64,000 nucleotides of DNA from the NCBI GenBank assembly GCA_963737655.1, contig CAVTTN010000002.1:3936001-4000000 (forward strand), written 5' to 3'. Positions 1,896 through 23,096 of this stretch are shown one piece after another. Positions within the stretch are counted from its first letter, which is position 1; each line of letters begins with the position of its first letter. The notes under the pieces are model-generated. The model saw only the letters and a list, made by a program, of their open reading frames with translations. It was not told the DNA's origin and did not search any database. Made by a program: the position numbers and the translations under genes. The DNA comes from an uncultured Planctomycetota bacterium (GTDB taxonomy: Bacteria > Planctomycetota > Planctomycetia > Isosphaerales > Isosphaeraceae).

Positions 1896-2225
1896 GGCTT
1901 CCTCCTGGGCCAACCGTCCGGGACGCGATCGCGGGCGATCCTCCCGAGGGCGGACGGTCCTCCGTCGGCCCCTGCTGCCCCTGGATATCGGGGGACGGGA
2001 CCGGAATTCCTCACCCGCGAACTCCCCAGGGTTACCCAATCTCCCGGAATTTCGGCGCGACCCCTGCAATCGGACGGCCTGGAACATTCCCGCCGCCTCG
2101 GGCCGAGGGCCTTGAGCTTCGCGGGGCGAGATGGTCCGATGGTCCGGGAAAAAAAAATGCGTATGAACGGCGAGGCGACGGGCACTAAGGTTCAAACAGC
2201 CTCACCGGAGGACGGAGCGGACTTC

Positions 2226-3551
2226 ATGGCGATCGGGCGGATCGGCCTGGCGGCCCGGCATTTGGGCGTTCTGTTCGACTCGGGGCGGCTCGGGGCCCTG
2301 TCCGACGGCGACCTCCTCCAACGGTTCCTCGACCGTCGAGACGGCGGCGAGGCGGCGTTCGAGACGCTGGTCGGCCGCCACGGGTCGATGGTCCTGGCCG
2401 TCTGCCGGCAGGTGCTCGGGCCGATCGACGAGGCCGAGGATGCGTTTCAGGCCACGTTCCTGGTCCTGGTCCGGCGGGCGGGCACGATCCGCAAGGCGGA
2501 GTCGCTCGGCCCGTGGCTCCACGGGGTCGCCCGGCGGGTCTCGCTCCGGGCCCGGAGGGACGCGGCCCGACGGTCCCGGCGCGAGCGATCGGCCGCGTTC
2601 CGGGTCGTCGGCGGCCCGGCCGAGGATCGATCCTTCGAGACCACGCTTCATGACGAGATCGCGCGTTTACCCGAAAAATACCGGACCCCGATCGTCCTGT
2701 GCGACCTGGAAGGCCGGAGCCACGCCGAGGCCGCCCGCCAGCTCGACTGGCCGATCGGCACGGTCAGCGGACGGCTCTCTCGGGCCCGGACCCTGCTCAG
2801 GGGACGGCTCGCCCGCCGGGGGGTGGCGCCGGGGATCGGGGTCGGCGCCCTGGCGATCGGCCGATCGGCGAGGGCCGACGCGGACCGGGCCCTGATTTCG
2901 AGGACTCTCGCCCTGGTCTCGGGCAAGACTTCCGTCGGCGCGTCGGTGGCCGGGATGGCGGACGCGGCGATCCGAGGGCCGATGTTGCGGCTGGCCCGCT
3001 CGATCGTCTCGGCCCTGTCGATCGGCTCGCTCGCGGCGTCTCTGGGGGGCCTGCCCCATCACGCGAGCTCCTCAAGCCCGACTTGCCGGGACTCGGGACC
3101 CGTCGTTGTCCGGGAGGATTCCGCGCTCCGGGCACCGCTCTCCGGCAAACGCCGCCGCCTGGCCGATGAGACGGAGATCCTCGCCCTGGCGTTCGCTCCC
3201 GACGGCCGGACCCTGGCCTCGGGTTCGGGCGACGCGACGGTGACGTTGTGGGACGTGGCCTCGGGGTTGGAGAAGGCGACGCTTCGCGGGCATCAGGCGC
3301 CGGTCTCCTCGCTGAGCTTCAGCCGGGACGGCCGACGACTGGCCTCGACGAGCGAGGACCGGACCGTCAAGGTCTGGGACGTCGGCACGCTCCGCGAGGA
3401 ATTCTCCGTGACCTGGCTCGATCCCCGGCCCGAGCCGGCCCACGACCTCGGGCCCGAGTCCCCCGACTCGGTCCCGTGCGGCCCCGGGCGGGACCGTTGC
3501 GCCGACGGTCCCGCCCGAGAGGCCGCCTCGCTCCCCGATCACCGGGCGTAA
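2226..3551 (+). CDS. Planctomycete ECF sigma-70 factor with a C-terminal WD40 extension
   Basis: SDGDLLQRF, AFETLVGRHGSMVLAVCR, AEDAFQATFLVL and LPEKYRTPIVLCDLEG motifs, followed by two WD40 repeats. The ATG at 2226 follows a GGAGG/GGAG RBS. Confidence 0.9.
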   Translation: MAIGRIGLAARHLGVLFDSGRLGALSDGDLLQRFLDRRDGGEAAFETLVGRHGSMVLAVCRQVLGPIDEAEDAFQATFLVLVRRAGTIRKAESLGPWLHGVARRVSLRARRDAARRSRRERSAAFRVVGGPAEDRSFETTLHDEIARLPEKYRTPIVLCDLEGRSHAEAARQLDWPIGTVSGRLSRARTLLRGRLARRGVAPGIGVGALAIGRSARADADRALISRTLALVSGKTSVGASVAGMADAAIRGPMLRLARSIVSALSIGSLAASLGGLPHHASSSSPTCRDSGPVVVREDSALRAPLSGKRRRLADETEILALAFAPDGRTLASGSGDATVTLWDVASGLEKATLRGHQAPVSSLSFSRDGRRLASTSEDRTVKVWDVGTLREEFSVTWLDPRPEPAHDLGPESPDSVPCGPGRDRCADGPAREAASLPDHRA

Positions 3552-3554
3552 GGC

Positions 3555-3596
3555 GTAGGGTGCATGAAATGCACCGTGATGTAGGGTGCATGAAAT
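3555..3596 (+). repeat. GTAG-family REP tandem pair; the second copy is interrupted by the IS
   Basis: GTAGGGTGCATGAAATGCACC (3555-3575), GTGAT spacer, then GTAGGGTGCATGAAAT (3581-3596) followed by the IS end. Confidence 0.9.
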
Positions 3597-5073
3597 CAGC
3601 CCTTTGGAGGCATTACTTTGTACACGCTTGACGAGCTTTTAGGATCTTCGCGGTAGCGACATGTTTGATCTTCGCCCCGCTCTGTTTCTTGGGCTTCGGC
3701 TTCTTCGGGCCGCGCGGGTGCTTGCGCAGCTTCGGCAAGGAAACCGATCGCGCCAGGCCCACCAGGACCTCGGCCAATTCCTCGGCGGGCAGGTCGTGAA
3801 ACACCACCCATTCGTCTTCGGGAATCGCGATCATCATCCCCCGGTGGGTCATCCGGATCTCGTCGGCCACGTAGTAGCCCGAGACCTCATCGGCCACCAC
3901 CTCCTCGCCGTGCACCGAACGCAACGCCCCCTTGACCGTGCTCAGCACGTTGTACGCGACCAGGGCCACGCAGAACGCGAACAACGCCGCCTTGGGATAG
4001 CCCAGGGTGTTGACCTCGCTGTCGAGCGACGCTTCCAACTCCTGGAACGCGGTCTCGATCGTCCAGCGACGACGGTAGAGATCGGCGATCACCTTGGCCC
4101 GGGCGTCCTGGGCCGGCACGTTGGTCAGGATGTGCAGCTCGGCCTCTCCGTCCCGCGTGGGCTGATCCAGCAGCACGGTGATCCGGCGCAGGATCAGGAT
4201 CTCGTCGGCCTCGTCGGTGGCCCGGATGGCCTGCTCGAAGACCCGGCCGGTCTCGATCCGGCCGCAGGCCCGCCGCTTGCCGACGAACGCCCAGTGCAAG
4301 GTCGAGGCGTGCTGTCGGATCGCGAAGGAGCCGCCGCGCCCCGCGATCCCGAACAGGAAGTCGGTCGTGCAGAAGTTGCGGTCGGCGATCCAGGGGTCCT
4401 TCGCCGCGACCTTCGCCAGGACCTGATCGAGCAACGACCGCTCCTGCGCATGACCGTCTTCACAGGGGACGACATCGGTGGCCAACATCAGGCGGGGGTC
4501 GAGCACGACCAGCGAGTGACCGGGCAAGGCGGCGGCCCGCATGGCCCGCAGCTCCTTGATCCTGTGCTCGGAGCCGGGGAGGTGATTGCCGTCGAGGATC
4601 CGGGCGCGATAGCCGGGCAGCCAGTCGGGCCGGGCGCCTCCCATCGCCTCGATGACCGGGGCCAACCGCGCGGCCACCGTGTGGACCAGCGCGGCGGAGA
4701 CGGCGGTCTCGGTGCCGTCGAGCTTGTCGTAGACGGCGTCGATGGTCGCCCCGACGGTCTCGGCTCGGGCCTGGAAGGCGGCGTGGATCGAGGGCCGGAT
4801 GCGGCAGACCACGACGCTCATGAGGTCGACGACCGTGGAGAAGAGGAGCTTGTGGGTGAACTGCTTGCGGGCGACCTCCTCGAAGAGTTGGTCGAGGGCC
4901 TGGGGGTCCATGGCGTTGGCCATGACACCCTGAGCCATGACCGACAGAGGAGAATCCCGGGAGAACCGCTCGAAGACATCGCTGAGGATCATCGCCGCCG
5001 CCTCCGCGGAGAATCGGTAACTCCGTATCTGGTGGCAGCTTAACAAACTCATGCCGACGACTCCAAAGGGCTG
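3597..5073 (-). mobile_element. IS4-family insertion sequence, 1477 bp, 13-bp TIRs, 12-bp target-site duplication
   Basis: CAGCCCTTTGGAG (3597-3609) and CTCCAAAGGGCTG (5061-5073). The direct repeat GGTGCATGAAAT lies at 3585-3596 and 5074-5085. Confidence 0.93.
3613..4992 (-). CDS. IS4-family DDE transposase
   Basis: ILDGNH, IADRNF and LYRRRWTIETAFQEL (YREK-like signature). Intact ORF with a basic C-terminal tail. Confidence 0.92.
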   Translation of the reverse strand: MILSDVFERFSRDSPLSVMAQGVMANAMDPQALDQLFEEVARKQFTHKLLFSTVVDLMSVVVCRIRPSIHAAFQARAETVGATIDAVYDKLDGTETAVSAALVHTVAARLAPVIEAMGGARPDWLPGYRARILDGNHLPGSEHRIKELRAMRAAALPGHSLVVLDPRLMLATDVVPCEDGHAQERSLLDQVLAKVAAKDPWIADRNFCTTDFLFGIAGRGGSFAIRQHASTLHWAFVGKRRACGRIETGRVFEQAIRATDEADEILILRRITVLLDQPTRDGEAELHILTNVPAQDARAKVIADLYRRRWTIETAFQELEASLDSEVNTLGYPKAALFAFCVALVAYNVLSTVKGALRSVHGEEVVADEVSGYYVADEIRMTHRGMMIAIPEDEWVVFHDLPAEELAEVLVGLARSVSLPKLRKHPRGPKKPKPKKQSGAKIKHVATAKILKARQACTK

Positions 5074-5207
5074 GGTGCATGAAATGCACCAACATGCGGC
5101 GGCCGAAGGCCGCCATCCGCCTCTTCCTCTTCTTCAACGAAGCGGAGCCAGGAGAGATGGATGGCGGCCTTCGGCCGCCGCATGTTGGTGCATTTCATGC
5201 ACCCTAC
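5073..5207. repeat. REPIN-like long hairpin: 46-bp perfect inverted repeat ending in REP units
   Basis: 5073-5118 is the reverse complement of 5159-5204. The reverse REP is at 5187-5207, and each arm contains a GCGGCC-GAA-GGCCGC mini-hairpin. Confidence 0.88.
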
Positions 5208-6550
5208 TTCAATCCCGGGGCCGCCCGGAAATTGGTGATCGGCTTGCCGTCGGCGGCGTTCCAGAGTCGGACCTCGCCGTCCCAGCAGCCGGAGACGATC
5301 GCGTTGCCGTCCCTGGAGATCGCGAACGTGTAGACCCAATCGTTGTGTCCATTCAAGACAAGTTTCTGCGCGTTTGCCTCGAAAATCCTCAGGGTCTTGT
5401 CGGCGGAACATGCGATCAACCGCTTGCCGTCGGGCGAGTACTGGAGACGGAAGACCGGGCCGCCGAACCCGCCGATCACGCCGGTCTGCTTGCCGTCCTC
5501 GTCGGGGTTCCAGATGCGGATCACGTTGTCGCCGCCCCCGGTGGCCACCTGCTTGCCGTCGGGCGTGAAGCTCACGGTGAACACGGCCTCCGTGTGGCCG
5601 GGGAAGGTGACGAGCGACTCCTTCTTCTCGATGTCGAAGACCTTGGCGGTCTTGTCGCGAGAGGCCGAGGCGAGCCTCTTGCCGTCGGGGCTGAAGGCCA
5701 CGTCCATCACCCAATCGGCGTGGTCCTCGATCGTGGTGACGAGCTTGCCGGACTCGACCTCCCAGACGCGGATCGCCCGGTCGGCCCCGGCGGCGGCCAC
5801 GAGGCGGCTATCGGGGCTGAACGCGACGGCCAGGACGCTGTCGGGCGTCTCGACCAGGTCGCGGACCGGCTTGCCTCCGCCGTCGGGCTCGGCCAGCCAG
5901 AGCTTGGCGGAACCCGATTGCCCCGGATCGCCACCGGCCGTGGCCAGCCACTTGCCATCGGGGCTGTACACGATCTCATAAATGCGTTCGTTCAAGCCTC
6001 GGACCCGCCGCACCAGCCCGCCATTGGCCGCGTTCCAGAGGTTGATTTCATGAAAACCTCCGGCGGCGATCGTCGTATTGTCGGGGCTGAACGCCACGGA
6101 CGTGATCGGCACGGGCAGGGGATAGCTGTCGGGCACCGGCACCACGCGATTCTTGTGGTAGAGCGCGACCCAATCTTCCTTCGGGTCGGCGCCGTCGTAC
6201 TTCGCCCCCTCGGTCACCCATCGCTCGATCAGCGCGACCTGATCCTTCGGCAAGGGGTCTTGCTTGTACGGCATCCTCGGCTGGGCGTCGGCATGAAGCA
6301 GCTCGACGAACCGGCTCTCGTCGGGCTTGCCGGGTTCCAGGGTGATGTCTTCGCCCTGCTGGCCGCCCTTGGCCAGCAAGGCGAACGTGGTCATGTTGTA
6401 CTTGCTCTCGCTCTTCCGCGAGTTGTGGCAGGCGATGCAGTTGCGGACCAAAATCGGCGCCACGTCCTTCAGGAAGCTCGCCGGGGGCGCCGGATCGGCG
6501 GCCAGGGCCGGAGACGTCATCACCGCGAACAGCGCGACCAGGCGAGACAT
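5204..6550 (-). CDS. Planctomycete cytochrome c domain + WD40 repeat protein
   Basis: Signal peptide, SFLKDVAPILVRNCIACH (CxxCH), RMP...LIERWVTEGA, then about 7 WD40 repeats. Confidence 0.9.
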   Translation of the reverse strand: MSRLVALFAVMTSPALAADPAPPASFLKDVAPILVRNCIACHNSRKSESKYNMTTFALLAKGGQQGEDITLEPGKPDESRFVELLHADAQPRMPYKQDPLPKDQVALIERWVTEGAKYDGADPKEDWVALYHKNRVVPVPDSYPLPVPITSVAFSPDNTTIAAGGFHEINLWNAANGGLVRRVRGLNERIYEIVYSPDGKWLATAGGDPGQSGSAKLWLAEPDGGGKPVRDLVETPDSVLAVAFSPDSRLVAAAGADRAIRVWEVESGKLVTTIEDHADWVMDVAFSPDGKRLASASRDKTAKVFDIEKKESLVTFPGHTEAVFTVSFTPDGKQVATGGGDNVIRIWNPDEDGKQTGVIGGFGGPVFRLQYSPDGKRLIACSADKTLRIFEANAQKLVLNGHNDWVYTFAISRDGNAIVSGCWDGEVRLWNAADGKPITNFRAAPGLK

Positions 6551-6645
6551 CGGCGGAGACTCCGTGGGGTGTCCTAAGAGATTAGTCGATCGCGGTGCTG
6601 TCCGCCAGCCGGTCGCGGTTGGATTCGTCCGGGATTCAGGACGAG

Positions 6646-6740
6646 GGGGAACCGAAACGCAGATTACGCAGATTACGCAGATGAAAACAATCAAGTGAAT
6701 TTCATCTGCGTAATCTGCGTAATCTGCGTTTCGGTTCCCC
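6646..6740. repeat. Palindromic intergenic element built from ACGCAGATT 9-mers
   Basis: GGGGAACCGAAACGCAGATTACGCAGATTACGCAGATGAAA ... TTTCATCTGCGTAATCTGCGTAATCTGCGTTTCGGTTCCCC; about 41-bp arms around a short AT-rich loop. Confidence 0.88.
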
Positions 6741-6749
6741 CACATCCCC

Positions 6750-22964: not shown

Positions 22965-23040
22965 CATCAAGGCCCAAACAAGGCCCGCAAGACGCGGGCC
23001 CACCGAACATCCTCACTCACTCAAATCCCTCGAAACCCAC

Positions 23041-23096
23041 CACTGCCCACTGCCCACTGCTTCCTGCCCACTGCCCACTGCCCACTGCCCACTACT
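23041..23096. repeat. Heptamer tandem repeat (CACTGCC)x8, three units imperfect
   Basis: Read directly between the regulator stop and the ispH upstream region. Confidence 0.92.

Follow-up and report, generated by a model that had tools for sequence, protein, structure and literature searches.

The question raised by this locus is whether an insertion sequence (IS) found inside a REP was directed there and, if so, by which feature of the repeat. IS1397 and IS621 are known to target REPs. In the window analysed here, a stretch of 64,000 nucleotides from the genome of an uncultured planctomycete of the family Isosphaeraceae, a DDE-type IS interrupts a REP, and an earlier note on this DNA had proposed from that single insertion that the element may use the REP family of its host as a safe-harbour target.

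The element and its insertion site

The element measures 1477 bp and has perfect 13-bp terminal inverted repeats (TIRs) and an intact DDE transposase gene. The features of the locus are as follows.

3597..5073, minus strand: IS4-like insertion sequence, recognized by its TIRs, duplication and ORF; two more near-identical copies in the genome
3613..4992, minus strand: DDE transposase, 459 aa; Pfam DDE_Tnp_1 above cut-off
5061..5073, minus strand: left TIR, 13 bp, upstream of the transposase start
3597..3609, plus strand: right TIR, 13 bp, identical to the left TIR
3581..3584, plus strand: GTAG tag of the interrupted REP; the duplication begins at the next base
3585..3596, plus strand: first copy of the 12-bp target duplication, nucleotides 5-16 of the REP
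5074..5090, plus strand: second copy of the duplication (5074-5085) and the remainder of the REP, forming a full 7/3/7 hairpin without GTAG
3555..3575, plus strand: intact REP in tandem, at a distance of 26 nt upstream, which is the most frequent tandem spacing of the genome
5187..5207, minus strand: REP that formed an inverted pair with the interrupted one (arms of 52 nt, 5073-5124 and 5153-5204)
2112..3551, plus strand: left neighbour, convergent on the REP cluster; its product joins an ECF-type sigma factor to WD40 repeats
5204..6745, minus strand: right neighbour, a WD40-repeat protein, convergent on the REP cluster

The earlier note had described these TIRs around a complete transposase, and both were borne out. 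The interrupted REP is the 5′ member of an inverted REP pair. As had also been stated, the duplication directly follows GTAG and takes in the left arm (7 nt), the loop (3 nt) and 2 nt from the right arm; moreover, when the IS and one duplicate are removed, a perfect REP is restored. This REP is the commonest of the genome. The claim that a hairpin is regenerated on the right needs qualification, in that the hairpin at 5074-5090 is complete but its GTAG tag has been replaced by a TIR-derived GCTG.

No promoter or terminator consensus was found at 3500-5300, and an Rfam scan of the window returned no RNA family match. The empty site was sought in sequencing reads, where the best run held at most 0.15 of the words; contigs from 4 of 24 listed runs contained only IS relatives and other REP pairs, and the empty locus was not seen among them. 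At 5204-5207, the TAG within the GTAG tag of the partner REP serves as the stop codon of the neighbouring gene. The ECF-sigma/WD40 gene at 2112-3551 encodes only about two WD40 repeats and may be truncated. Elsewhere in the window, a heptamer tandem repeat of 7.7 copies occupies 23040-23093, and 16-mers of this repeat family occur about 190 times genome-wide.

The transposase and its family

The element had been assigned to the IS4 family, and this assignment held in part. The catalytic residues D134, D204 and E313 were kept in 203/203, 202/203 and 203/203 relatives, respectively, and their D-70-D-109-E spacing falls within the IS4 range D(60-110)D(100-150)E defined in PMC2266710. There is a single ORF with no programmed frameshift, as in IS4 elements, and target duplications measured 10-13 bp in 82 of 82 called targets, in keeping with the one helical turn of the family (duplication callers permitted 8-14 or 9-14 bp). 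On the other hand, Y306-R309-E313 is followed by E rather than K at position 320, so that the complete Y(2)R(3)E(6)K motif of the IS4 family is lacking; across the 203 relatives, Y was found in 199, R in 201 and E in 203, while the last position was E in 105, A in 51, T in 47 and K in none. Likewise, the NCBIfam model IS4_1 gave 96 bits, below its cut-off of 115, yet was the best-matching family. The predicted structure of the transposase (pLDDT 83.6) has the Tn5 transposase as its nearest neighbour (E 2e-9, TM 0.44), with a basic C-terminal tail (residues about 430-459) that is modelled at low confidence; a sequence-profile search of the PDB with the transposase gave 0 matches.

The element thus resembles the IS4 family and Tn5 in its single ORF, D-70-D-109-E spacing, 10-12-bp duplication, CA ends and length of about 1.5 kb. 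In the available text of PMC2266710, which defines the family and notes strong specificity in the target arms, none of the seven subgroups fits cleanly: IS4Sa is alike in its CA ends, and IS231 and IS4 are alike in duplication length. IS701, ISH3 and IS1634, which lack the full YREK motif and make 4-6-bp duplications, were considered as alternatives and set aside, the duplications here being 12 and 11 bp and the model matches weak. The element is therefore filed, loosely and from its sequence features, as IS4-like, with one hallmark (the YREK lysine) missing.

Two relatives on plasmids carry the RefSeq label 'IS4 family transposase'. A 1467-bp relative with 42% identity lies on the megaplasmid of Ralstonia GMI1000 and, going by its length, may be ISRso13. 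In the accessible part of a preprint (10.1101/2022.07.16.500299), ISRso13 is not tied to a family.

The target REP and a candidate RAYT

The commonest REP of this genome is present as 184 exact 21-mers, and the motif GTAGGGTG-N9-CACC had 288 genome matches, compared with 0 for a reversed control. The earlier note had estimated that REPs cover well under 1% of the window; in agreement with this, the GTAG-GGTG REP family makes up 0.08% of genome bases, and the window has 5 intact matches to the motif. The target has the properties of GTAG REPs and REPINs, namely a tag, a short perfect hairpin, high copy number, an extragenic position and occurrence in tandem and inverted pairs. As in those repeats, GTAG is directly followed by a perfect 7/3/7 hairpin, and inverted pairs stand between convergent genes; it is the target, not the element, that corresponds to them. 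Going by the available text of PMC3733652 and PMC8266576, it resembles group 3 REPs, and a RAYT is encoded in the genome. GTAG REPs have been recorded in the PVC group (PMC3733652), and the GTAG tag is important for RAYT binding and cleavage (PMC8266576). Half-REP matches of the family numbered 12, and an insertion was seen in only 2 of them, both of them IS copies.

The RAYT at L228 passes the NCBIfam cut-off (108.6 vs 80). One REP copy lies about 190 nt upstream of its gene, with other palindromes nearer, and it may be the cognate RAYT of the target REP. Seven Y1 transposase matches were found in the genome, along with five or more GTAG repeat types other than the target. Pairs belonging to a second REP family surround L232, and long palindromes of a tag-less family surround L228.

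Copies in this genome

Three near-identical copies of the element were found, all of them intergenic. The second copy (C2:3532412-3533887) lies in the same REP type and register as the window copy, and the two have a common duplication and orientation. The third (C2:896841-898316) occupies a unique non-REP site with an 11-bp duplication; this site has GTAG|GG and GCACC flanks as in the REP, but the hairpin is absent (-2.0 kcal/mol). The comparison of flanks that the earlier note had put forward as a check on specificity is thus divided, with 2 of 3 copies at the same REP register and one outside REPs. The third copy (near C2 896830) is inserted directly after the TAG stop codon of another gene. 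In a search for miniature derivatives, 18 TIR matches with at most 1 mismatch were found in the genome, 6 of which belong to the three copies.

Copies 2 and 3 are without one base near the gene end (IS position 120, window position 3716). The base lies in a CCCGCGCGG context and is missing from two of the three copies in this genome and, in genome G061, from 6 of the 17 copies of a sibling; a seventh G061 copy is without two bases beside that position, and similar losses occur in other GC runs. A real frameshift in copies 2 and 3 was set aside, since the same base is missing from 6 of the 17 G061 copies. Judged from this sequence pattern, a systematic error of long reads is the probable cause, and it would make intact transposases appear to be frameshifted.

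Use of REPs by relatives

Relatives were taken from two locus searches (the best 80 of 579 and the best 80 of 566 confirmed stretches). In G061, 17 left ends of a sibling of about 85% identity were found, and all 17 adjoin GTAG-GGTG REPs in the same register, one of them with a variant tag and an imperfect stem. Fourteen of these copies have their own matching 12-bp duplication, comprising 8 distinct sequences, and they stand in both orientations (8 one way, 6 the other). Given these 14 copy-specific duplications, the insertions in G061 were therefore independent; they are also young, because the copies differ from one another at only 0-3 positions. Unmatched flanks were seen in 3 of the 17, two of them reciprocal. 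The duplications of L123 and L162 are reciprocally swapped, which suggests recombination between copies or mis-assembly, and L112 and L137 also have unmatched flanks.

The same register recurred in more distant elements. Those with 40-63% identity used it in G013, G023, G027, G086, G087, G100 and G111, including one in the very REP type of the window and one in a long-loop REP (L308-L310); it was seen as well in imperfect stems (L119, L300). In 9 REP-rich hosts, 39 of 42 copies were at the register, compared with 0 of 47 in 12 REP-poor hosts (40-100% identity), where REP-rich means at least 45 motif matches, a cut-off set after inspection of the data, and where the tally takes in one-ended and mismatched junctions and leaves out copies whose TIR could not be called and genomes for which there was no REP count or no callable end (e.g. 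G060, G084 and G017). Across 21 genomes, REP use correlated with host REP count (Spearman 0.79, with kin not independent). When 129 clusters were placed on a tree, 21 used the register; REP use required 13 changes compared with 19.7 after shuffling (0 of 1000 as low), and the REP-using clusters were clumped yet scattered over several branches. Distant elements (41-60% identity) used REPs in 2/2 to 4/4 cases where REPs are sparse (3-5 per Mb). In contigs from four runs (soil or unlabelled), 1 of 4 listed IS-end flanks, all one-ended, resembles another REP type at the same register, and the other three show no such resemblance.

Measured against the Type 1 class of Tobes and Pareja, the position in the REP is fixed, with 33 of 33 REP targets after the tag, but the presence of all copies in REPs was found in G061 (17/17) and not here (2/3). 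Among targets with a near-perfect half, under a definition that leaves length free, 33 of 35 have a 12-bp duplication. The earlier note had held that copies in unrelated targets would refute specificity. Such copies exist, in the form of the third copy and of the REP-poor hosts, but so does the single register shared by nearly all copies in REP-rich hosts. REP targeting is real but facultative, and a selected safe-harbour function is at most conjectural.

Two further observations concern other repeats. Other subclades (L048 and L052, also L305, L306 and L319) show a second mode of repeat use: they sit at the axis of different palindromes, and their duplications, where one was called, measure 10 bp. 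At L236 (G103:C100), a left-end remnant of a close sibling, without a transposase, lies 10 nt after GTAG in a REP-poor host.

Target consensus and the choice of REPs

Non-REP targets have in common a symmetric half-site, T-R-G|G. Among close relatives this half-site is longer, G-T-R-G|G-G-T-S, which equals the first eight bases of the REP. A target matrix was built from 8 non-REP targets in other genomes, 5 of them from one genome. With this matrix the window REP scored 11.9 bits at 12 bp, compared with 1.4 at 10 bp and 0.1 at 11 bp; the scores of five other types of GTAG repeat in the genome were 1.1-8.3 bits, and the mirror register of the hairpin averaged -2.4 bits. The hairpin-free site of the third copy reached 11.1 bits. 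Of 373 genome sites with at least 11.05 bits, 268 were this REP at this register, in line with the presence of 2 of 3 copies in REPs. The dominance of REPs among the best sites is helped by the scarcity of TAG, which occurs at 0.27 of expectation in this genome. Insertion cuts the score of an intact REP to 9.3 and 6.1 bits, the latter for the tag-less hairpin at 5074-5090. In a 400-kb sample of G061, 9 of 10 sites with at least 13 bits were the REP subtype in use, while another subtype, alike in hairpin shape (83 of 478), scored 5.1 bits and was used by 0 of 17 copies (p ~0.04, hand calculation). A relative of 40% identity used the low-scoring subtype once (L014, 6.6 bits).

These data suggest that sequence readout around the GTAG tag, rather than recognition of the hairpin, guides the choice of REPs, a reading that we consider reasonably probable because a matrix derived from non-REP sites picks out the REP and because the hairpin-free third site scores nearly as high. 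From the anatomy, the tallies, the register and the match between consensus and REP, we infer that the transposase may read its target directly. The element would be a recently active cut-and-paste IS, by analogy with the chemistry of the IS4/Tn5 family. A Tn5-like transposase dimer would read a loose two-fold symmetric duplex, with G-T-R-G | G-G-T-S on each side, and would make two cuts 10-12 bp apart. A GTAG-GGTG REP would supply a perfect first half-site, followed at exactly 12 bp by a passable second one. Most of the best sites in a genome rich in both REPs and GC would then be REPs, leading to insertion 3′ of GTAG with 12 bp duplicated, and in hosts without this REP scattered weaker sites would be used. 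The preference appears to be steeper than the matrix, probably helped by the loss of genic insertions.

The fit of the matrix is incomplete. Were insertion proportional to matrix score, REPs would receive 5-52% of copies in 3 Mb of this genome and, for the G061 sample, 15-82% (5-92% by bootstrap); matrices from broader sets gave 0.07-10% here and 1-72% in G061, and family-wide matrices, which explained little of REP use, were set aside. The linear matrix thus under-predicts the 17 of 17 in G061. Held-out non-REP targets scored from -3.8 to 10.2 bits, which means that relatives accept sites far below any steep threshold. The clumping of REP use on the tree, the REP insertions of distant elements in hosts with sparse REPs and the single use of the low-scoring subtype at L014 also speak against a simple readout. 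Either some lineages have a sharper preference, or there is a contribution from structure, host factors or survival.

A contribution of this kind is the basis of a rather unlikely alternative, in which GTAG|GG is read but an extruded REP or REPIN hairpin, supercoiling between convergent genes or a REP-bound protein is also needed or strongly preferred. It would account for the under-prediction in G061 and for heavy REP use even where REPs are sparse, and it finds parallels in the subclades that insert on palindrome axes with 10-bp duplications (L048, L052) and in ISRm22, which inserts at a palindrome axis and for which supercoiling has been proposed (in the available text of PMC1525189). However, the third site is free of a hairpin yet scores close to the REP, and 47 non-REP targets were no more structured than their flanks (-2.4 vs -3.3 kcal/mol, with two axis-centred palindrome matches left out of this test). 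Moreover, the REP subtype of the same shape is not used in G061, and the register is identical in the long-loop REP.

It is improbable that a weak preference and survival suffice, such that insertion is broad and only intergenic, REP-rich insertions persist. All three copies here are intergenic, and the predicted REP share roughly doubles when only intergenic DNA is counted. However, with uniform insertion each register would receive a share of about 1e-5, and intergenic DNA is 20-25% of the sequence; the G061 copies are young; and survival cannot account for a fixed register and a fixed side in all 33 REP targets that have a duplication, every one of which is on the tag side although the hairpin is symmetric. 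That a single chance insertion spread as a REP-IS-REP unit through REP recombination or the RAYT is very improbable: the common duplication and orientation of the two REP-borne copies here, the unmatched flanks of 3 of 17 G061 copies (two reciprocal) and the RAYT encoded in the genome would be in keeping with it, but it is largely refuted by the copy-specific duplications of 14 of the 17 G061 copies, with their 8 sequences and 8/6 orientations, and the pattern recurs in unrelated elements and hosts.

Comparison with known REP-targeting elements

REP targeting by an IS4-type element is already known. ISRm22 of Sinorhizobium meliloti (IS4 family, subgroup IS4Sa) targets REPs at the palindrome axis, according to the available text of PMC1525189 and PMC2266710. 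It is likewise an IS4-family DDE element with an end starting in CAG, and all ISRm22 copies described there lie at a fixed REP point. In contrast, it is reported to make 6-bp duplications at the axis of a REP that, as described in the accessible part of PMC1525189, apparently has no GTAG, whereas the element studied here, compared with ISRm22 by description, has its insertion point next to GTAG at the stem base, duplicates 12 bp and is facultative. No Sinorhizobium record was present among 25 plasmid matches to the transposase.

ISPsy8, ISPa11, ISPpu9, ISPpu10, ISRm19, IS1397 and IS621 are alike in having a fixed insertion point in host REPs, but they have transposases of other families, make 0-3-bp duplications and insert inside the stem or loop. 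ISPsy8 is an IS3 element, and ISPa11, ISPpu9, ISPpu10 and ISRm19 are IS110 elements (as given in the available text of PMC1525189); IS110 elements select their targets with an RNA (PMC11208160). For protein-only DDE transposases, palindromy or supercoiling has been proposed as the basis of REP choice.

What is new here is that a clade without the lysine of YREK inserts at the GTAG tag, and that a testable rule of target choice can be put forward; a literature search that covered few subscription papers found no report on this clade or on GTAG-tag insertion. The clade is a natural experiment in which near-identical enzymes occur both in hosts that have the repeat and in hosts that lack it, and its non-REP sites predict the REP family, the side and the spacing that are used. 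The ecology of the IS is thereby tied to REP populations, and this IS4-related group may merit a name of its own.

A possible lengthening of the target consensus

We tentatively suggest, as a possibility well short of even, that the target consensus of the clade has grown in planctomycete hosts from T-R-R|G to G-T-R-G|G-G-T, which agrees with the opening bases of the GTAG REPs of the host, and that the clade so tracks, by means of the tag, neutral sites that are maintained by a RAYT. If so, the tag on which the RAYT depends would itself lead the element to self-renewing neutral sites, and each insertion would strip this tag from the hairpin. There are hints of this: T at +3 was found at 18 of 29 and 32 of 52 non-REP junctions in closer relatives compared with 42 of 155 in distant ones, and G at -4 at 10 of 16 compared with 15 of 68, with kin not independent in either comparison.
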